Positions 8,568 to 23,899 of a stretch of 24,000 nt of DNA are shown here, piece after piece; the first letter of the stretch is position 1; each line of letters starts with the position of its first letter. This stretch comes from Metallosphaera javensis (ex Hofmann et al. 2022). Its GTDB lineage: Archaea > Thermoproteota > Thermoprotei_A > Sulfolobales > Sulfolobaceae. The stretch covers positions 126,545 through 150,544 of the forward strand of contig NZ_JAKNCW010000005.1 in assembly GCF_022064045.1 (NCBI RefSeq), read 5' to 3'. A program made the position numbers and the translations under genes. The notes below the pieces were generated by a model. It saw nothing but the letters and a program-made list of their open reading frames with translations. It made no database searches and was not told the DNA's origin.

Positions 8568-9105
8568 GTTAAATAATAGGGCGAGCGAGAAGGTCTGGTT
8601 CAGGGAACTGGTTCTCTGCATACTCACGGCTAACTCAAGCTTCATCGGGGCCTTCACAGCCCTTCAGTCCTTGGGAGATCTCATCCTTTACGGATCAGCT
8701 GAGGAGATATCCAAGGTTCTCAAGGAAACGGGCTACAGGTTTCCAAACCTTAAGGCAAAATACATCGTTAGGAGCAGATCGCATTACGGCAAGCTTAAGG
8801 AGATTGGGCGGGTAGCCGATAAGGATCAGATTGAGGCTAGGGAGATGTTACTGGAAGTCCAGGGTCTTGGAATGAAGGAGGCCAGTCACTTTCTCAGGAA
8901 CATGGGATATCTGGACTTGGCAATAATTGACAGACATATATTACGCTTTTTCTCCGATTATCTGGAAGACCGCAAAATCTCCTCAAGGAAGAGGTACCTA
9001 GAACTGGAGTCTGTACTCAGGGGTATAGCATCAGCCCTGGACCTTCCAGTGGGAGTGCTGGACCTCTACATCTGGTATCTCAAAACGGGCAAGATAGCCA
9101 AGTAG
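8500..9105 (+). CDS. ogg: N-glycosylase/DNA lyase, Ogg2-type 8-oxoguanine DNA glycosylase (HhH-GPD superfamily)
   Basis: 201 aa. WFRELVLCILTANSS and the helix-hairpin-helix QGLGMKEASHFLRNMGY...IIDRHI match archaeal Ogg proteins from memory. GTG 8500 is the only in-frame start upstream of the conserved block. Confidence 0.85.
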   Translation: MLRKVVRDARLRARVLERVEEFRLNNRASEKVWFRELVLCILTANSSFIGAFTALQSLGDLILYGSAEEISKVLKETGYRFPNLKAKYIVRSRSHYGKLKEIGRVADKDQIEAREMLLEVQGLGMKEASHFLRNMGYLDLAIIDRHILRFFSDYLEDRKISSRKRYLELESVLRGIASALDLPVGVLDLYIWYLKTGKIAK

Positions 9106-9135
9106 GTATCCTCATTTACTCTAGTTAGAAAAAAG

Positions 9136-9143
9136 TATATAAA
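9136..9143 (+). promoter_or_regulatory. strong orphan TATA box with an A-rich BRE
   Basis: AGAAAAAAG-TATATAAA is bracketed by the inverted repeat CTAGTT (9121-9126) / AACTAG (9142-9147). The predicted TSS near 9166 is about 150 nt upstream of serA. Confidence 0.4.
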
Positions 9144-9172
9144 CTAGTGAATATCGATTAAAGTGACTAAAC

Positions 9173-9296
9173 ATGAATGGCCAACCGGTTACTACGCGTG
9201 ACCAACACTATTTTAATCAATATTATGTTTCTAAATATTTCTATTTCTCTATTTCCCTTTCATCTATTTCATCATCACTCTCATCCTGTTAAATAA
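9173..9296 (+). other. two overlapping 39-codon sORFs (ATG 9173, Ser-rich; ATG 9177, hydrophobic and His-rich)
   Basis: Hand translation of 9173-9292 gives MNGQPVTTRDQHYFNQYYVSKYFYFSISLSSISSSLSSC. Hand translation of 9177-9296 gives MANRLLRVTNTILINIMFLNISISLFPFHLFHHHSHPVK. Both begin 7-11 nt after the predicted TSS. Both are below the 60-aa cutoff of the ORF track. Confidence 0.2.
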
Positions 9297-9298
9297 TT
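9289..9298 (+). promoter_or_regulatory. proximal TATA candidate for serA
   Basis: TTAAATAATT is centred about 25 nt upstream of ATG 9318, which is leaderless spacing. The stop codons of both sORFs lie inside it. Confidence 0.35.
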
Positions 9299-9317
9299 CT
9301 CTTGAAGGTGAACAAGG

Positions 9318-10289
9318 ATGGCAGATAACTTTATGGGTGGTTCTCTAGCTAAAGAAAATCTAACCATACTAATAACCGATCCAATTGACGAGTACATGAT
9401 AAGGACACTGAAAACCAAGGGTCTCAGGGTAAACTATCAGCCCGATATAGATAGGGAGGAGTTACTGAAGGTAGTGGAGAACTATGACGTACTGGTGGTC
9501 AGGAGCAGAACCAAGGTTGACAAGGAGGTCATAGAGAGAGGGAAGAGGTTGAGGGTTATAGCTAGGGCAGGAATAGGTGTGGATAACATAGATACGGAGG
9601 AAGCCGAGAGGAGAAAGATCAGGGTCGTATATGCGCCAGGTGCTTCTACCGATTCCGCTGCAGAGTTGACGATAGGTCTAATGTTAGCCGGAGCTCGCAA
9701 CATGTTTACCTCCATGACCTTGGCTAAGTCTGGTATATACAAGAAAACTGAAGGAGTCGAATTGAGTGGAAAGACAATTGGAATAATAGGATTCGGAAGA
9801 ATAGGGTATAAGGTTGGGGTTATTGCAAAGGCCATGGGCATGAACGTCTTGGCGTACGATGTAATCGATGTCTCCAATAGGGCTGCGGAGATCGGAGCTA
9901 GAGCGGTTTCCTTGGATGAACTGGTTACCCAGTCCGACGTGATTAGCATTCATGTGACTGTAGGGAAGGACGCTAAACCAATACTGACCTCCAGAGAGTT
10001 TGAAATGATGAAGAAGGGAGTCATCATAGTCAACACAAGCAGGGCAGTGGCTGTTGACGGAAAGGCCCTCCTTCATTACATAAAGGAGGGAAAGGTTATG
10101 TCCTACGCCACAGACGTGTTCTGGCACGAACCACCAAAGGAGGAGTGGGAGCTAGAACTGCTCAGGCACGAAAGGGTCACAGTCACCACCCATATAGGGG
10201 CACAGACCAAGGAGGCACAGTACAGGGTTGCCGTCATGACCACGGAAAACCTGTTGAGGGCTTTACAGGAGCTCGGTGTTAAACTTTGA
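9318..10289 (+). CDS. serA: D-3-phosphoglycerate dehydrogenase / D-isomer-specific 2-hydroxyacid dehydrogenase (short form, no ACT domain)
   Basis: 323 aa. The NAD-binding motif GIIGFGRIG is present, along with the family-typical layout and the RxxxxD/H catalytic region (HIGAQT). Confidence 0.75.
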
Positions 10290-11407
10290 TGCTCATTCCA
10301 GGTCCAGTAAACGTTCCAAGAAGTGTGGCCCAGAATTCCACAGTCGTGGTTAATCATAGATCCGAGAAGTTCAGAGGAGTGGTTGCTCAACTTGAGCACC
10401 TTTTAAAGGGTGCGTTTTTCTCCTCTAGGGTTGCCCTGCTCACTGGATCTGGAACTCTTGCTGTGGAGTCCATGGTGTTCTCCCTTCTGAAGAAGGGGGA
10501 AAAGGTCATCGTGTTGACTTACGGGGAGTTCAGCGAGAGATTGCTGGACTCGGTAGTAAGAAGGGGTACCTCTGCAGTAGTGTATAGGAAACCCTTCGGG
10601 GAGATATTTTCGGAGGAGGAGATAAAGGAGATACTTGATACCAACAAGGACGCTACGGCCCTAGCATTTGTTCATAACGAGACCAGTACTGGTATAGCAT
10701 TCAGGAATTTGAGGAGGGTTGTGAAATTGGCTAAGGATATGGGACTGAAGGTTCTGGTGGACTCCGTTTCAGGTTTCGGTGCCTACGAAATAAGGGTAAA
10801 CGAGTGGAACATAGACGCAGTAGCAACAGGTAGCCAGAAGGCGCTAGCCTCTGTCCCAGGCATGGGCCTGGTCGGGCTATCGGAGGAAGGAATCCGCAAC
10901 CTTCAGGACGATGCGCCAAACTACCTCAACCTCAAGCTTCACCTTAAATTCCAGGATAGAAGGGAAACTCCTTTCACTCCTGCAGTGGGCGTATTCTTTT
11001 CTACACTGAGAGCCACAGAACTTCTTCACCAGGAAGGCGTTGAGAGGAGATGGAAGAGACATGAAGCATGTGCCAGGTTCGTGCGAAGTATAACTGCCAA
11101 GGCAGGTTTCTCTTTACTTGGAAATGAGAGTAATTTTTCCAATACAGTGGTAGCTGGGGCTCCTCCAGTTTCACCTAAATCCATGATAGAGGAACTTTCG
11201 AAGAGAGGAATAGAGATCTCAGGGGGAATTGGCGAGCTCAAGGATAAGATAGTGAGAATAGGAACTCTGGGAATGATAGATGATAGGGCCGTACTCAGAT
11301 TGAGATACGCACTGTCGGATATACTTAAGGTAGATTTGAACGATGTCCCCTCTGCAGACTGCAAACTTCCAGATTCTATAGCTCAAGAAATGGACTGGGA
11401 TAACTAA
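10286..11407 (+). CDS. class-V PLP aminotransferase (serine-pyruvate / phosphoserine aminotransferase-like)
   Basis: 373 aa. [12 protein letters not shown] contains the PLP lysine motif of AGXT-type class-V enzymes, and HNETSTG is also present. The start (TTG 10286 or ATG 10289) overlaps the serA stop. Confidence 0.8.
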
Positions 11408-11855: not shown

Positions 11856-11883
11856 AAAAAATTTAAAAAGGCTATAAAGCCTT
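11856..11883 (-). terminator. cdv operon terminator candidate (hairpin plus oligo-T)
   Basis: The minus strand reads AAGGCT-TTAT-AGCCTT, a 6-bp stem that includes the last cdvC codons and the TAG stop. It is followed by TTTTT-AAA-TTTTTT. Confidence 0.45.
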
Positions 11884-12981
11884 GAACTTTTCGTGCCACG
11901 CTGCGTATGCCTTTAACATATCCTGGTTAACGCTTGGCTTCCTGACCTTAAGCACTTCCCTGAAATCATCCATGTTTATCGCTCTGGGCTCCTGCAGGTT
12001 CTTTTCAAACATTTCCTTCACCACTCTCATGTGAGCCGATTGAACTATGTCTCTAATATCACTGGCCGTATATCCATCAGTCAATTCAGCAAGTTCCTCA
12101 AGGTTCACGTTTGGATCCAGCTTCACCTTGGAAGAGTAATGCTTCAATAACTCTAACCTGTGGGCCTTGTCTGGAAGGGTGATATATATCCTCTTCTGGA
12201 ATCTTCTCAGGAACGGTTCATCCAATCTCCACGGCTTATTGGTCGCCCCTATGACATACACTCTGGAAATCTCGTTTTTGTCGGCTAATCCGTCCATCTC
12301 CTTGAGGAATTGGTTCCTAACCCTGGCCTCTCCACCCACCTCTGATGTGTAGGAGGCAAGCAACGCATCCAGCTCATCTATGAAGATGATGGCAGGTTTG
12401 TTCTCCTTTTTAGAGAGCTCCCTGGCAGTCTTGAATATCTTGGCTACGTTCTTCTCCGCCTCTCCAAGCCACTTTGACATGATTGAGGCCGCATCCACAT
12501 GAATGAACTCCGAGTCAAGTTCGTTTGCTACTGCGGCCGCTATCATGGTTTTTCCACATCCTGGAGGACCATACAATAAGATCCCCCTAGGCCAGCCCAA
12601 CGGGAAGAGGTCTGGTCTCTTGCTAGGATAAACTACTGCCTCCTTCAGAGCTTCTTTCACGTCCTCTAGTCCAACAATTTCGTTCAGGGTCACCTTGGGT
12701 TTTTCCTTCATGACTATCTCTTCTTCACTTTTTTCAGTCTCTTCTCCTCCCTCCGGAACCATTTGGTTTAGCGTATCCAGCCTCTTCTTGTACTCGTTGA
12801 TCATCTGCTCATAGGCGTTCCTGGCAACCATATCAGGGTAGAGGGTAACGATCTGTGTAAGCACCTCAATCGCCTTCTTGTAATTGTTGATGGCATCCTC
12901 CCTTCTCCCCTCCTTGTCAGCCCTAACCGCGGCTATGGCATACTTCCTTGCCATTTCTTCCAGCATCACCTGGGCACTCAT
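11872..12981 (-). CDS. cdvC: Vps4-like AAA+ ATPase with an N-terminal MIT domain (CdvC)
   Basis: 369 aa. It has an N-terminal helical MIT-like region, Walker A GPPGCGKT, Walker B IIFIDELD and the [25 protein letters not shown] lies 9-13 nt upstream of the ATG, inside the cdvB 3' end. Confidence 0.93.
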
Positions 12982-12986
12982 CTGAG

Positions 12987-13805
12987 TCAGGCCTCCAGTG
13001 CTATTAGACCCTTCTTAGCTAGGTTGTTCAGTATCCCAAGGACTTCATTCTTGTCCACCCCATACTCCGCAGCCACCAGGGACACATCAAGTATACCCCC
13101 ACTGTTCCTTATAAGGGTCAGAAGTTCCTCCTCTCCTATCTTTCTTCTAACCACCTTGGGTTCGGATGGAGGATACGGAAGCCCTATCATACTAGGCTCC
13201 ATGGGAGTTACACTCTCCTTGGGAGGATGAGGTAAATCGAGCTTGGGCATCCTTTCACTGATCTTAGTTTCAGCTGTCTTTCTGGCCTCATCAAGTATCC
13301 TCCTTGCCTCATCGTCTACCGTAGGGACAAGAGATCTATCGCTTACCGTCATTCCCGTTTCGACGGCAATGCTATTCACGCTACTTATAATCGAATCCAA
13401 AGCTATGGCCACTTCTGGAGCCACTCCTCTTACTTGCTCCTTCAAGCTCTCCAAAGTCCTTCCTACGGGACCAATCATGGAAGACACCCCCTGGATATCG
13501 TGAATGGTTTCCAATCTAATCCTAACCTTCTCTATGGCCAGCCTCGCAGTGTAAACTATTTTCATGATTTTCCTTATTTCCGAAATTTCCTGAGCGTAAA
13601 TGGTAGCCCTGGTCATCTCCCCGTTCTCCTGGGACCTCACTACCTTGTCGAAGAGGTCCTTGTCCCTATCCTCCAGCTTCCTCATGGTTTCGTCGAGCTT
13701 GTCCTGCTGATCTCTCAATTTAATAGAAATTTCAGTTAATTTGGAAGATAACAACATCTGTTCATCTTTCTTCCTTGTAATGTTGAAAAGTAAGCTTAAC
13801 TTCAT
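12987..13805 (-). CDS. cdvB: ESCRT-III (Snf7/Vps2-family) protein with a C-terminal winged-helix-like domain (CdvB)
   Basis: 272 aa. Long helical-hairpin heptad-rich core, a Pro-rich linker ([30 protein letters not shown]), and a C-terminal [48 protein letters not shown]. The gene ends 5 nt upstream of cdvC. Confidence 0.9.
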
Positions 13806-13823
13806 CCTAAAGAAATAGGTTGG

Positions 13824-14543
13824 TCACTGTGTGCTTAAGACTTTAACAGGTATTGGTGTAGGTAATTCCGTCCTGCTAAGATCGGGCTTTGTTGATGACT
13901 CGGTTCCATTGGTGAGGGACCCTGCTCCTTTTATATCTAACCCACTATCTCTATCACTCAGGTCCAGTTTCTCCATGGTCTTTCTTATGTCATCCTTCTC
14001 TACAATGTAACTCTCCTTAGCCTGCCTCAGTATCTCTATGGAGCCCTTGTATGCACTCTCAGTCAGTTCAGCTGCTATATAACTCATTTTCACTGCGATC
14101 ATTGCCCTGTCTATATGAGTGATCTGATCCTCCACTTCATTGAGTCTGCTCTTTAGCTTGCTTTTAATTTTGGCATAATCCTCCCTTATTTTCACCATTT
14201 CGGAATCAAGTTTCCTTTTCATATCATCATAGGAAGACTTTGGAATTTCCTGCTTTGCGTATAACTCCTCTAGTGCCCTCTGCCTCTTCCTTATTTTCTC
14301 CATTTGCATTATAGATTTCATAGAGTCGGCCTTCCAATCGGGAAGGATAGCCAGTACATCATTAACCAGTGATATCCTGGACGGATCTAACGTGGAGAAA
14401 GTGTTCCCGTATGCAACCTCTATCCCGGTCACCGTTCCGTCCACTTCTGTATAAACATGGACAATGTAGCCTACCTCTCTCCCGTAAACGTCCTTCACCT
14501 TTTGACCTATGAATTTCATTAAATTATCATACGATATAGCCAT
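13824..14543 (-). CDS. cdvA: CdvA, cell-division protein (PRC-barrel-like N-domain, coiled coil, C-terminal ESCRT-III-binding tail)
   Basis: 239 aa. N-terminus is [33 protein letters not shown], followed by a long charged coiled coil. The tail is [24 protein letters not shown] lies 8-13 nt upstream of the ATG. The gene ends 18 nt upstream of cdvB. Confidence 0.9.
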
Positions 14544-14603
14544 AGGTATTACTCCTCAAAAATAGAGGTTACTCCAAGAATGGCTTAAAAGGCTTAGTGC
14601 CCC

Positions 14604-14651
14604 TCAGAGTAGGTTGTTCTTCATCTAATACGCGCTTTTAACCTTCATCAT
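14604..14651 (-). ncRNA. candidate box C/D sRNA or K-turn element upstream of cdvA
   Basis: The minus strand has a perfect ATGATGA (C, 14651-14645), then 20 nt with no clear D' box, then ATGAAGA (C'), 10 nt, and CTGA (D, 14607-14604). Total 48 nt. A symmetric TATA (14677-14686) is centred about 30 nt upstream of box C. Confidence 0.33.
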
Positions 14652-14676
14652 TGGTAAAGGTAATTCCGGGGGACAA

Positions 14677-14686
14677 TTTAAATAAA
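14677..14686. promoter_or_regulatory. near-symmetric TATA element, possibly bidirectional
   Basis: It reads TTTAAATAAA on plus and TTTATTTAAA on minus. It sits about 27 nt before TTG 14709 (33 nt before ATG 14715) on plus, and about 30 nt before the box C at 14651 on minus. Confidence 0.35.
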
Positions 14687-14714: not shown

Positions 14715-14963
14715 ATGACGTTACAGACGCTTGTAAACGTAACAAATCAGTTGTTCCATCCATTAAGCTTCAACACTGAGCCTTTATCAATAACACTGAT
14801 AGCAATGGGGCTCATAGTGCTGTTCCTGGTGGCCATAGGGGGAATGGTTTACGGTCTCTTCAAGGCAGTTAAAGCTGTACCCAACTTAACCACTAAACAA
14901 TTCATTCTCTTCCTCCTGCTGTTGGCCGTTGGTCTGGTAGTGGTAGGGATATTGCTGCCGTAA
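14715..14963 (+). CDS. small membrane protein with two predicted TM helices, divergent from cdvA
   Basis: The hydrophobic stretches ITLIAMGLIVLFLVAIGGMVYGLF and FILFLLLLAVGLVVVGILL are the evidence. Start is ATG 14715 or TTG 14709. Confidence 0.5.
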   Translation: MTLQTLVNVTNQLFHPLSFNTEPLSITLIAMGLIVLFLVAIGGMVYGLFKAVKAVPNLTTKQFILFLLLLAVGLVVVGILLP

Positions 14964-16250: not shown

Positions 16251-16556
16251 ATGTTAATGGTGCCGATAGCCCTCTTCCTGTTTTACGGCGTGATGTCGCC
16301 CGTATATTACCATTTATTGAAGGATAAAATGAGCAATCAAACGGCGTTCACAATAACTTGGATCACGGCACCCTTTCTGGCCTCCTATCCCTACCTCGTG
16401 TCCTATCTATACATTCTTCCTATTATTCTCGTGTTAAATATCATAGGATACGTTCTAGTGATACGAAGAAGTTACAAATATATTTATAATGGATTACTTT
16501 TCCTTACTGCCTCCATTATAACGATACTATTTTTTAAACTGTTACCTTACATATAA
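16251..16556 (+). CDS. hypothetical integral membrane protein
   Basis: 101 aa, three to four hydrophobic segments, AT-rich gene. It is the first of three co-directional, tightly spaced genes. Confidence 0.45.
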   Translation: MLMVPIALFLFYGVMSPVYYHLLKDKMSNQTAFTITWITAPFLASYPYLVSYLYILPIILVLNIIGYVLVIRRSYKYIYNGLLFLTASIITILFFKLLPYI

Positions 16557-16562
16557 CTCCAT

Positions 16563-16886
16563 ATGCCCAAGAAGAAACAAAGTGAACCGGACGTTTGTCC
16601 CAACTGCGGGACTAAGGCAGAGAAGCCCATAAAGACGTGGAACTTGGTATCTCCTCTTCCTGACGCGTACGGTAGAATAACCATTACCGTAATGGGTTCA
16701 TATGAATGTCCCAATTGCGGTCACAGATGGAGAGCGGTGGTCTCCAAGATAAGGGCAGGTGGATCAGAGGTAGAAGTGGAGGGAAAGAAGGGCGTGAAGA
16801 AGTTTGGAGGAGAGAAGAAGGAGCAGAGAACCGATGAAGGAGAGGTAATAGAGCTGGATTTAGGCGATCTGGATGAAGAAGAGTGA
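16563..16886 (+). CDS. zinc-ribbon protein with an acidic C-terminus
   Basis: 107 aa. CPNCG...CPNCG forms two CPxCG knuckles. Next comes a Lys/Gly-rich stretch and the acidic tail EVIELDLGDLDEEE. Confidence 0.6.
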   Translation: MPKKKQSEPDVCPNCGTKAEKPIKTWNLVSPLPDAYGRITITVMGSYECPNCGHRWRAVVSKIRAGGSEVEVEGKKGVKKFGGEKKEQRTDEGEVIELDLGDLDEEE

Positions 16887-17295
16887 TATAGCGATCATCA
16901 TTCTTATTGCGTTGGTTTATATCGTGTTTTATTCTAACATAGTGAGTTCTGCTAGCGTGGAAGGAGTATCAATGTATCCGATTTTTCAGAACGGGGCCCT
17001 GACCTTCTATCAGCCTCCAACTCACGTAACTTATCACTCAATCATAATATATAGGTCGCCACAGCTTCACACCTACGTGATCCACAGGGTCATAAGGGTT
17101 GACGGAACATACTACGTAACCCAGGGGGTGGATAAGATATCCAATCCTCAACCCGATAATCAGATAGGGTTAGAGCCGGCCCCTGGTGTTCCCTCCAGTG
17201 ACGTGATAGGAAAAGTGACTCAAATAGATGGATATGTTATTTCCATCCCTTATCTAGGTTACCTATCTATCCTACTTTCTTCCCTGGTTAGGTAA
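16873..17295 (+). CDS. signal peptidase I (S26 family, archaeal/eukaryal Sec11 type)
   Basis: 140 aa. It has an N-terminal TM anchor, the GVSMYPIF serine box and the VIHRV histidine box. It overlaps the upstream gene by 14 nt. Confidence 0.65.
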   Translation: MKKSDIAIIILIALVYIVFYSNIVSSASVEGVSMYPIFQNGALTFYQPPTHVTYHSIIIYRSPQLHTYVIHRVIRVDGTYYVTQGVDKISNPQPDNQIGLEPAPGVPSSDVIGKVTQIDGYVISIPYLGYLSILLSSLVR

Positions 17296-22918: not shown

Positions 22919-23899
22919 TTGGAGGAGCTTAATAACGCCAAGGATATAGAGACTAGGAAGGTTCAGAAGCTCGGCTCATCCTCCCTTTTCATTACATTAC
23001 CCAAGAAGTGGATCAATAGGTGGAACGTTAAACCGGGAGACAAGATCCTGATAGAGGTGTCAAGTGATGGCTCTCTTAAGCTGATTGCAGAGAAGATAAA
23101 GATGGAGAATAATCACAGGTCCATCAAGATTGATGTTGACTCATTGAAGCAACCAATTCCCAGCATTATCCCATGTCTCTACACCCTTGGATACGACGAA
23201 ATCATCCTGGAATCCAAGAGATCCATTCAACCCAAGGACGTTGAGGACCTCATTCAAGTAACAAAGCAGATAGTTGGAGTCGAGGTAACGGAAACATCCG
23301 AGAACAGAATCAAGGTGGAGTGCCTCTTGGACACTGAAAAGGTTGGGATAGAGTCCCTTCTCAGAAGGATGCTCAACACTGTTGCCAAGAGAGTTGACGA
23401 GACCATAGCCCTGATATCAGGGGAAACGCCAAGGGAGAGCTCAGGGAATCATGAGGATCTGCGCAGGCTATATTACATGTTAATGAGAAGAGTCATGGGA
23501 AGCAGATACGAGACCGCCAAGAATATGACCAAGAACACCCTTATCGTGATAAATACCACTACCCTCCTTAACGTGGACACTGTGATAGATAAATTGATGG
23601 ACGCAATCAGGTCATCCAGCCCTAGTAAGGAGGAATCTCAGGTCCTTGTCGAGACGCTGAAAAAGGTCAACGATCTCTTGGACGAGGTTATAATGACCGT
23701 TCTATTTCCCAGCACCAAGAGGGTTCTAAACGGTCTTAACTTAGTCAGAGAATCTAGGCTCAACTTATCTCAGCTAAACAATACTCCGGTCGTAGAGTAC
23801 ATCAAACAGATAGTGGGACTTCTGGAGAGCGCTCTAGAGAATTCGTCCTGTACACTGTTCCTGGAGGATATGCCTTGGATAGAAAGAAACTTAACTTAA
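22919..23899 (+). CDS. AbrB/SpoVT-domain plus PhoU-domain regulator (archaeal phosphate-uptake-regulator type)
   Basis: 326 aa. The N-terminal VQKLGSSSLFITLPKKWINRWNVKPGDKILIEV is a swapped-hairpin AbrB motif. Two helical PhoU-like repeats follow. TTG start. Confidence 0.75.
   Translation: MEELNNAKDIETRKVQKLGSSSLFITLPKKWINRWNVKPGDKILIEVSSDGSLKLIAEKIKMENNHRSIKIDVDSLKQPIPSIIPCLYTLGYDEIILESKRSIQPKDVEDLIQVTKQIVGVEVTETSENRIKVECLLDTEKVGIESLLRRMLNTVAKRVDETIALISGETPRESSGNHEDLRRLYYMLMRRVMGSRYETAKNMTKNTLIVINTTTLLNVDTVIDKLMDAIRSSSPSKEESQVLVETLKKVNDLLDEVIMTVLFPSTKRVLNGLNLVRESRLNLSQLNNTPVVEYIKQIVGLLESALENSSCTLFLEDMPWIERNLT

Follow-up and report, generated by a model that had tools for sequence, protein, structure and literature searches.

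The cdvABC cell division operon of Metallosphaera javensis and a predicted C/D box sRNA gene upstream of its cdvA promoter

Identity and organization of the operon

We are highly confident that positions 11872-14543 of the analysed stretch of DNA, a 24-kb sequence hereafter called the window, represent the cdvA-cdvB-cdvC operon of a Metallosphaera species, which encodes the half of the Sulfolobales ESCRT-type cytokinesis machinery that resides in an operon. The species can be specified as M. javensis because of an exact protein match, as NCBI already holds identical sequences as CdvA, CdvB, and CdvC of Metallosphaera javensis. The locus is thus an already known and correctly annotated cdvABC operon, in agreement with the first-pass annotation, which had described it as established rather than novel. 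The addition made here is a predicted C/D box sRNA gene upstream of the cdvA promoter.

Cdv represents, in prokaryotes, the relative of the ESCRT-III/Vps4 machinery that performs abscission in eukaryotes, and it takes a central place in ideas on how eukaryotic membrane remodelling arose from archaea. The M. javensis locus adds nothing to these ideas, being an orthologue of proteins crystallised from the sister species M. sedula, and it is useful chiefly as an anchor for reading the gene neighbourhood.

The operon consists of three ORFs on the minus strand, on which the domains, the promoter and terminator elements, and the sRNA gene described below also lie, each with an ATG start: cdvA (13824-14543, 239 aa), cdvB (12987-13805, 272 aa), and cdvC (11872-12981, 369 aa). 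The spacers measure 18 nt between cdvA and cdvB (13806-13823) and 5 nt between cdvB and cdvC (12982-12986), so that the ORF listing of the window agrees exactly with the previously described co-directional arrangement. The matches to the respective NCBIfam equivalog models lie far beyond chance (E-values of 8.9e-122 for CdvA, 1.7e-110 for CdvB, and 4.6e-209 for CdvC). Immediately past the cdvC stop codon, a T-rich stretch with T5 and T6 runs (11856-11870) is likely the operon terminator; this reading is based on the general rule that archaeal transcription terminates at oligo-T stretches.

The operon is complete, but the division machine is not complete in the window, since the 24 kb contain neither CdvB1 nor CdvB2, the ESCRT-III paralogues of the constricting ring. 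The description of the locus as "complete" in the first-pass annotation thus holds for the operon and not for the machine. A domain scan of every plausible non-overlapping ORF of at least 90 aa, from which shadow ORFs overlapping real genes were left out, found no further Snf7 domain and no tubulin/FtsZ domain in the other ORFs of the 24-kb window. The earlier remark that no ftsZ is visible is thereby borne out for this window, a result that says nothing about the genome-wide absence of ftsZ or presence of cdvB1 and cdvB2.

Domain architecture of CdvA, CdvB, and CdvC

CdvA, the archaea-specific template-ring protein, scores 405 bits on the CdvA equivalog of NCBIfam (cut-off 350) and 134 bits on Pfam CdvA PF18822 (cut-off 30), and it aligns over its full length with the solved CdvA structure 9s9g (E 7e-95, 60% identical). 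The assignment as a PRC-barrel-like protein with a coiled coil is thus retained, with different kinds of evidence for its two parts. The coiled-coil domain (aa 86-198, 13950-14288) is the region matched by PF18822. For the N-terminal PRC-barrel-like domain (approximately aa 1-70, 14334-14543), the Pfam PRC match over aa 10-55 is weak (14.7 bits, below the cut-off of 21.2), and the call therefore rests on the 60%-identical solved structure. The alignment to 9s9g includes the C-terminal E3B peptide (aa 226-239, 13827-13868), which aligns to SEIPLPIPVKVINT of the solved CdvA and is expected by orthology to bind the winged helix of CdvB. Published work gives the CdvA C-terminal peptide the name E3B and a role in CdvB winged-helix binding. 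The coding DNA of this peptide is conserved across all compared loci. Its name and role reportedly go back to Samson et al. 2011.

For CdvB, the ESCRT-III homologue with a winged helix, the profile matches lie close to their cut-offs. The protein scores 368.8 bits on the NCBIfam CdvB equivalog, 1.2 bits under the cut-off of 370, and barely exceeds that of Pfam Snf7 (27.6 bits, cut-off 27.3). These low scores are probably due to the linker, which is the longest among eight aligned orthologues. Among the rival NCBIfam models, CdvB1/B2 reaches 124 bits, a third of the score of the CdvB model, and CdvB3 reaches 48 bits. The ESCRT-III core (approximately aa 16-189, 13239-13760) aligns to solved structures of CdvB (9s9j, E 4e-63) and CdvB2 (9s97), and the C-terminal winged-helix domain (aa 222-271, 12993-13142) matches that of CdvB in PDB 2xvc (E 3.4e-7). 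In the M. sedula orthologue, Pfam CdvB_HTH (PF27303) is present. Together, the Snf7 match, the core, and the C-terminus support the earlier description of CdvB as Snf7/ESCRT-III-like with an added winged helix.

Two shorter elements of CdvB may mediate its contacts with the membrane and with CdvC. The N-terminal segment (13767-13805) is likely a membrane-binding amphipathic helix, a role taken over from published work; a hydrophobic-moment calculation on this segment was crude, had no control, and is not counted as evidence. The segment is kept in the orthologues, which favours the start codon of the 272-aa form and not that of the 243-aa form given as an alternative in RefSeq. The proline-rich motif LDLPHPP (aa 189-195, 13221-13241) is predicted, by analogy to orthologues, to be a MIM2-type docking site for the MIT domain of CdvC. 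The core of this motif, LPHPP, occurs in seven of eight aligned CdvB sequences and reads LPRPP in the remaining one. A MIM2 function of the CdvB proline-rich motif was reportedly described by Samson et al. 2008. GLPYPPSEP was considered as a second MIM2 and rejected, its conservation being confined to the M. javensis/M. sedula pair. Likewise, we rejected recombination or a foreign allele as the origin of the CdvB divergence: the protein is 89-90% identical to that of M. sedula, with the differences concentrated in the linker. A faster rate of CdvB is also seen in the comparison with M. yellowstonensis (55% identity for CdvB, 77% for CdvA, and 88% for CdvC).

CdvC, the Vps4-type AAA+ ATPase, passes the NCBIfam CdvC equivalog with 693.8 bits (cut-off 650), and its Pfam domains MIT, AAA, AAA_lid_3, and Vps4_C all score above their cut-offs. 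The MIT domain (PF04212, 37.3 bits, cut-off 30) spans aa 10-72 (12766-12954) and is followed by the AAA+ core (PF00004, 136.6 bits; aa 134-268, 12178-12582) and the Vps4-type C-terminal helix region (PF09336, 30.6 bits, cut-off 21.3; aa 322-366, 11884-12018). Reading of the motifs located Walker A (GPPGCGKT, aa 138-145, 12547-12570), the pore loop KWLG (12463-12474), Walker B (IIFIDELD, aa 198-205, 12367-12390), and the arginine pair RR (aa 259-260) within RRFQKR of the second region of homology (12190-12207). The result agrees with the earlier call of an MIT-domain AAA+ ATPase of the Vps4 type, and the motifs quoted with that call are present.

The functional motifs of the operon are all intact, comprising the E3B peptide, LPHPP, the winged helix, Walker A and B, the pore loop, and the arginine pair. 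There is nothing in the sequence itself that argues against the cdvABC reading, and none of the profile comparisons proposed as potential refutations for the three proteins overturned it.

Synteny and relatives

The locus was compared with eight loci from a genome-collection scan with a CdvA alignment, which did not return the source genome, and with M. sedula. Seven complete Sulfolobales loci and M. sedula have the cdvA-cdvB-cdvC order, with eno and a small transmembrane (TM) protein gene upstream, in common with M. javensis, in line with the synteny that the first-pass annotation had proposed to check. The eighth contig ends within cdvA and supports the upstream half only. M. sedula, M. yellowstonensis, and Sulfolobus sp. 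UBA167 share the longer order gcvP-sigpep-Zn ribbon-orf101-eno-small TM gene / cdvA-cdvB-cdvC-rpoK-aminotransferase-serA. Five other loci have the same block, but with approximately 2 kb between cdvC and rpoK or with a differing far side. The insert of approximately 2 kb was read in one locus and contains a 673-aa ORF that appears topoisomerase-like by eye only.

The closest relative is the M. sedula operon (Msed_1670-1672; CP000682, around 1.61 Mb), whose genes follow one another in the same order, with spacers that also measure 18 nt and 5 nt. CdvA and CdvC are 98% and 99% identical, respectively, and CdvB shares 243 identical residues out of 270-272. The upstream region contains the same sRNA, TATA-like element, and aCcr1 box. 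In contrast, the DNA is only 84% identical, and in the CdvB linker there are several substitutions and an indel of 3 residues. CdvA and CdvC of M. sedula have been studied in vitro and crystallised, with CdvC structures 4D80-4D82. The experimental references, the Cdv systems of Sulfolobus acidocaldarius and Saccharolobus islandicus (Saci_1372-1374), have the same three-gene operon, domain architectures, and promoter box, but their sequences are more diverged than those of M. sedula, with 60% identity between the S. islandicus CdvA and the CdvA described here. A further difference lies in the cdvA 3' end upstream of cdvB, where M. javensis has CTTAAGCA in place of the TATA-like AATAAATA.

With eukaryotic ESCRT-III (Snf7/CHMP) and Vps4, the M. 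javensis system shares the ESCRT-III fold, the MIT-MIM docking logic, and the Vps4-type AAA+ core with its C-terminal helix. However, eukaryotes have no counterpart of CdvA, the CdvB described here has an extra winged helix, and its likeness to Snf7 is marginal by Pfam. No ESCRT-I or ESCRT-II genes were found in the 24-kb window.

The cdvA promoter

A TATA-like sequence, CCTTTTAAG, at 14584-14592 (-49 to -41 from the cdvA ATG) is a probable cdvA promoter element, and a TATA-like sequence is found at this position in all nine aligned cdvA promoters. One nt upstream of the start codon, AGTAATACC (14545-14553) matches the 9-bp motif described as the site of the repressor aCcr1 (PMC9976878) and is a putative aCcr1-box. 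Eight of the nine aligned promoters have the consensus AGTA(A/T)TACC, and the ninth has GATAATACT at the same position. By count alone, the motif is not significant, since AGTAWTAC occurs once in the window and 1.1 occurrences are expected; its weight comes from its position and conservation. By analogy, we infer that this box serves as the repressor site that would shut off cdvA after division. With the TATA-like element located approximately 45 nt before cdvA and the putative aCcr1 box next to the start codon, transcription of cdvABC is expected to be cell-cycle gated.

Proposed mechanism and alternative roles

The following mechanism is taken from orthologue work, so that protein contacts, order of events, and regulation are all carried over to M. 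javensis by inference. CdvA, with its PRC barrel and coiled coil, would polymerise at mid-cell, and its E3B peptide would recruit CdvB through the winged helix. CdvB, with its ESCRT-III fold and N-terminal membrane-binding helix, would then form a non-contractile template ring, to be followed by a ring of CdvB1 and CdvB2, encoded elsewhere, that apparently drives constriction. The MIT domain of CdvC would dock on the MIM2 motif of CdvB, and the ATPase would take ESCRT-III polymers apart at the expense of ATP.

Two alternative readings concern the identity of the 369-aa ATPase and the role of the operon. The ATPase might be a generic AAA protein of the Cdc48, PAN, or FtsH type that merely lies beside an ESCRT-III gene, and its AAA core does align strongly to p97/Cdc48 D2 domains (approximately 313 bits). 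We consider this possibility negligible and the Cdc48/PAN identity refuted, as the protein stays far below the cut-offs of the NCBIfam CDC48 (214.7 bits, cut-off 802.65) and PAN (196.3 bits, cut-off 500) models while passing the CdvC equivalog, has a single AAA domain between an MIT N-terminus and a Vps4 C-terminal helix rather than tandem AAA domains, and is almost identical to the crystallised CdvC of M. sedula. It is also very unlikely that extracellular-vesicle budding or virus release, instead of cytokinesis, is the main function of CdvA, CdvB, and CdvC. Eukaryotic ESCRT machinery is multifunctional, and Sulfolobales Cdv proteins have been linked to vesicle formation; however, the orthologues at 98-99% identity belong to a family for which genetics and imaging in Sulfolobus and Saccharolobus have demonstrated a role in division, and the cdvA promoter has the division-phase aCcr1 box. 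Vesicle and division roles are not mutually exclusive, and if Cdv proteins are active in vesicle budding, division need not be their sole role.

A predicted C/D box sRNA gene upstream of cdvA

Between the cdvA promoter and the divergent small membrane-protein gene (14715-14963, 82 aa), we predict a C/D box sRNA gene (14604-14651), a homologue of Sac-sR26. Its layout comprises a C box (ATGATGA), a 12-nt guide AGGTTAAAAGCG, a degenerate D' box (CGTA), a C' box (ATGAAGA), a 10-nt guide, and a D box (CTGA). The terminal boxes fit the consensus sequences RUGAUGA (C) and CUGA (D), and all ten aligned sequences have both CTGA and the TGATGA core. The C' box has one mismatch, and the D' box (CTTA elsewhere) fits CUGA at two of four positions. 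The C' box and the guide core are likewise invariant in the ten sequences, which include the published Sac-sR26, and the element is also found in M. sedula. Sac-sR26 (Dennis et al. 2015, PMC4644070) can be aligned from end to end, with the C box, the guide core GGTTAAAAGC, the C' box, and the D box unchanged, and differs in the second (D) guide, which has 11 nt in Sac-sR26 and 10 nt here and varies in sequence between species. The RNA-seq data of S. acidocaldarius (PMC4644070 Additional file 1) contain 5170 reads of Sac-sR26. Upstream of the C box, at a distance of 24 nt, lies a TATA-like sequence, TTTATTTAAAT (14676-14686), and a T/A-rich element occurs at a similar distance across the aligned loci. 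TTTATTTAAAT is possibly a bidirectional promoter common to the sRNA and the small membrane-protein gene.

Searches against Rfam at the gathering threshold and a tRNA scan gave no matches in the whole window, and no family matched the sRNA element at its gathering score, the best being sR1 (RF01152) with 28.2 bits versus 45. In a permissive search, seven C/D box families overlapped the stretch, six of them co-located and all below gathering.

As a conserved block at -110 to -62 from the cdvA ATG, within an intergenic region that is conserved across the Sulfolobales, the element might alternatively act at the DNA level, in the regulation of the cdvA promoter, instead of encoding an RNA. This is unlikely, given that the cdvA strand carries C/D' and C'/D boxes at the proper distances, albeit with a degenerate D' box. 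The Rfam matches also point to an RNA, since seven C/D box families match the block and the only other match, to a microRNA family, lies elsewhere. Furthermore, the S. acidocaldarius homologue is an abundant small RNA, and sR106 of T. tenax, an organism not known to have cdvA, has the same guide in the same register adjoining a canonical D box. RNA-gene and DNA-regulatory roles of 14604-14651 could coexist.

Continuing with the sRNA gene, we hypothesize from the guide sequence that its target is U34 of tRNA-Lys(UUU). The guide complement GCUUUUAACC is absent from the 16S and 23S alignments published for seven archaea. Of 120 viral-contig loci in which it is combined with a suitably spaced T arm, 113 are tRNA-Lys(UUU) genes. 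In these viral contigs, GCTTTTAACC followed by the T arm is a common tRNA-Lys(UUU) anticodon arm, which is uninformative for Sulfolobales. The literature on archaeal tRNA modification yielded no report on position 34 of tRNA-Lys(UUU) in Sulfolobus, no Lys-targeting guide is listed in Pyrobaculum (Lui et al. 2018), and a text search of the literature for the guide sequence returned irrelevant matches only.

The sRNA gene and the small conserved membrane-protein gene sit in the cdvA upstream region in all 11 Sulfolobales loci examined, an arrangement of sRNA and cdvA for which we found no description in the literature examined. A functional coupling of the sR26-type gene to the division operon beyond this adjacency is, in our view, quite improbable. 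It could take one of two forms: the T-stretch at the 3' end of the sRNA may also function as the TATA box of cdvA, in which case transcription of the sRNA and initiation at cdvA would interfere with each other, or some cdvA transcripts may begin at the sRNA promoter and would then carry a long leader with an L7Ae-binding kink-turn. If such coupling were true, synthesis of an RNA that guides methylation, possibly that of U34 in tRNA-Lys(UUU), would be tied to the wave of transcription in the division phase. Both the sRNA gene and the small membrane-protein gene in the upstream region should be reckoned with when the cdvA promoter is studied, a point of possible minor value.

Organization and identity of the cdv operon

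The genes cdvA (13824-14543, 239 aa), cdvB (12987-13805, 272 aa), and cdvC (11872-12981, 369 aa) each begin with ATG and lie on the minus strand, so that the ORF positions bear out the co-directional trio with spacers of 18 and 5 nt described in the first-pass annotation. GC skew and AT skew are both negative over this stretch, in agreement with minus-strand coding. The observation of three ORFs is confirmed and their interpretation as cdvA-cdvB-cdvC is supported; each outcome that the first-pass annotation had named as refuting was checked, and none occurred. Only the title of that annotation requires correction: the locus is complete as an operon but not as a division machine, because CdvB1 and CdvB2 are not encoded in the window.

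CdvA exceeds the cut-offs of both CdvA profiles (NCBIfam equivalog, 405 bits, cut-off 350; Pfam PF18822, aa 86-198, 134 bits, cut-off 30) and aligns over its whole length to solved structures of CdvA (9s9g and 9s9i), its C-terminus matching the E3B peptide region. Of the two domains proposed for this protein, the coiled coil is recovered (PF18822), whereas the PRC-barrel match is weak in Pfam (14.7 bits vs. a cut-off of 21.2).

The assignment of the 272-aa protein to Snf7/ESCRT-III also holds (Pfam Snf7, 27.6 bits, cut-off 27.3). It misses the NCBIfam CdvB equivalog cut-off by 1.2 bits (368.8 vs. 370), but this model is clearly preferred over those of the paralogues CdvB1/B2 (124 bits, cut-off 350) and CdvB3 (48 bits, cut-off 170). 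The core aligns to solved CdvB (9s9j, E 4e-63) and CdvB2 (9s97), and the last 50 residues align to the winged helix 2xvc, placing the proposed C-terminal winged helix at aa 222-271. The proline motif LDLPHPP occupies aa 189-195; LPHPP is found in seven of eight aligned CdvB sequences and LPRPP in the remaining one. RefSeq contains two CdvB starts, giving 272 and 243 aa. The shorter form would drop an N-terminal segment that is conserved in orthologues, which supports the long start.

CdvC is of the Vps4 type, as had been proposed, with MIT, AAA, AAA_lid_3, and Vps4_C domains each above the Pfam cut-off. It scores 693.8 bits against the NCBIfam CdvC equivalog (cut-off 650) and stays far under the cut-offs for CDC48 (214.7 bits vs. 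803) and PAN (196 bits vs. 500). The nearest solved relatives are archaeal CdvC/Vps4 chains, 4D80 first, and the sequence carries Walker A (GPPGCGKT, aa 138-145), pore loop (KWLG, aa 170-173), and Walker B (IIFIDELD, aa 198-205) motifs and an arginine pair (aa 259-260).

Each of the three proteins has an exact match in NCBI, where it is named as cell division protein CdvA, CdvB, or CdvC from Metallosphaera javensis/Metallosphaera sp. J1. Published in vitro work covers CdvA, CdvB1, and CdvC of M. sedula, and structures 4D80-4D82 are of the M. sedula CdvC protein. The cdv system of M. javensis is therefore already known and annotated, in line with its earlier description as established rather than novel.

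The cdv DNA of M. sedula is only 84% identical to the window, yet CdvA (235/239 residues, 98%) and CdvC (365/369, 99%) are nearly identical, pointing to strong purifying selection on these two proteins. CdvB evolves faster than its neighbours (243 of 270-272 residues identical, about 89-90%), with the differences concentrated in the linker. This linker (aa 196-221) is the longest among eight aligned orthologues and contains another proline-rich motif, GLPYPPSEP, that M. sedula alone shares in that alignment.

A division model can be drawn from work on orthologues rather than from M. javensis itself. By analogy, CdvA filaments would mark mid-cell and recruit CdvB by binding of the E3B peptide to the winged helix of CdvB, and CdvB would form a non-contractile ring. 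Next would come a further ring, made of CdvB1 and CdvB2, which appears to power constriction. CdvC (Vps4) would take the ESCRT-III polymers apart, and removal of CdvB would let constriction proceed. In the same model, the division-phase transcription wave would be switched on by TFB2 and then off by aCcr1.

Probable promoter and terminator elements

Across nine loci, the aligned 100 nt preceding cdvA show a fixed layout: a TATA-like CCTTTTAAG at positions -49 to -41 relative to the ATG, then a GAGG-containing stretch, and AGTA(A/T)TACC abutting the start codon in eight loci (GATAATACT in the ninth). The abutting element matches the 9-bp aCcr1-box and is a candidate site for this repressor; the box mediates cdvA repression in Saccharolobus islandicus and has been reported in cdvA promoters across the Sulfolobales (PMC9976878). 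As AGTAWTAC occurs once in the window against 1.1 matches expected by chance, the weight of this assignment lies in position and conservation, not in the count. Runs of T5 and T6 directly 3' of the cdvC stop codon are probably the operon terminator.

Seven other aligned Sulfolobales loci have a TATA-like GGTAATAAATAC in the last cdvA codons, which precedes the start codon of cdvB by about 30 nt. In the window it is replaced by GTCTTAAGCACA (13825-13850, minus strand). If GGTAATAAATAC serves elsewhere as an internal cdvB promoter, this promoter would be weakened in M. javensis.

A C/D box sRNA candidate upstream of cdvA

The block at 14604-14651 (minus strand, -110 to -62 from cdvA) is better conserved than the remaining intergenic DNA and is built like a C/D box sRNA: C box (ATGATGA), 12-nt D' guide (AGGTTAAAAGCG), degenerate D' box (CGTA), C' box (ATGAAGA), 10-nt D guide (ACAACCTACT), and D box (CTGA). 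It lies between the cdvA promoter and a divergent gene for a likely small membrane protein, with TATA-like elements on either side (14676-14686 and 14584-14592). In a permissive Rfam search, seven C/D box families overlapped the stretch, six of them co-located, all below the gathering threshold (best sR1, 28.2 bits vs. 45); the other match, to one microRNA family, was elsewhere on the opposite strand. Its alignment to Sac-sR26, a small RNA of S. acidocaldarius, is full-length, and 5170 RNA-seq reads are reported for Sac-sR26 (PMC4644070, Additional file 1). The same element is present in M. sedula and conserved in all 11 Sulfolobales loci examined. The block at 14604-14651 is most probably a gene for a C/D box sRNA, a homologue of Sac-sR26.

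All ten aligned sRNA sequences share the guide core GGTTAAAAGC without change, whereas the second guide drifts between species; Thermoproteus tenax sR106 carries the conserved guide in the same register beside a canonical D box. A search of published 16S and 23S rRNA alignments from seven archaea did not find the guide complement GCUUUUAACC. Among viral-contig loci in which GCUUUUAACC is followed at the proper spacing by a T arm, it marks a tRNA-Lys(UUU) gene in 113 of 120, and GGTTAAAAGC is complementary to a typical tRNA-Lys(UUU) anticodon arm. We hypothesize that the sRNA targets tRNA-Lys(UUU), where the N+5 rule would place a 2'-O-methyl group on the wobble U34. The pairing of a conserved with a drifting guide fits the pattern of one conserved and one free guide that Lui et al. 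set out for tRNA-targeting sRNAs.

The divergent gene (14715-14963, plus strand) encodes 82 aa with two stretches that are hydrophobic by eye, so that its product resembles a small membrane protein. It matches no Pfam or NCBIfam family and is annotated as hypothetical, with Msed_1669 as its M. sedula counterpart; its position is kept in all eight fetched Sulfolobales loci at 39-64% identity. This conserved gene and the sRNA are minor points for anyone dissecting the cdvA promoter.

Genomic neighbourhood

The scanned ORFs flanking the locus are housekeeping genes, including those for tryptophan biosynthesis, a class I aminoacyl-tRNA synthetase, an Ogg glycosylase, a 2-hydroxyacid dehydrogenase, an aminotransferase, RpoK, enolase, an archaeal signal peptidase, glycine cleavage, and a PAC2 protein. 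No tubulin/FtsZ domain, consistent with the earlier remark that no ftsZ is visible, and no second Snf7 domain were detected in the scanned ORFs of the window.

The upstream half of the order (gcvP, signal peptidase, Zn-ribbon protein, orf101, eno, small TM gene) recurs in all eight Sulfolobales loci fetched from genome contigs. Divergent from the small TM gene follow cdvA-cdvB-cdvC, then rpoK, aminotransferase, and serA, and M. sedula retains the entire order from gcvP through serA. In seven fetched loci cdvA is followed by cdvB and cdvC, the eighth contig stopping inside cdvA. The far side of the operon is variable: the arrangement of the window is repeated in M. yellowstonensis and Sulfolobus sp. 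UBA167, and the other five loci have about 2 kb separating cdvC from rpoK or, in one locus, no rpoK match. In one fetched locus (L003), a 673-aa ORF at 8661-10682, topoisomerase-like by eye only, lies between cdvC and rpoK, and four others (L002, L005, L007, and L008) have about 2 kb extra at the matching position. Neither the Metallosphaera loci nor Sulfolobus sp. UBA167 has this extra sequence.

Between eno and gcvP lie three small genes (16251-17295, plus strand) that are conserved across all Sulfolobales loci. Their products are a 101-aa protein without family, a zinc-ribbon protein of 107 aa, and an archaeal signal peptidase I of 140 aa (TIGR02228, 77 bits). The signal peptidase ORF runs 24 nt into the 3' end of the convergent gene for a gcvP subunit. 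Finally, a 326-aa protein (22919-23899, plus strand) combines an N-terminal MazE/AbrB-type domain (PF04014, E 1.7e-10) with about 260 residues without a family match.
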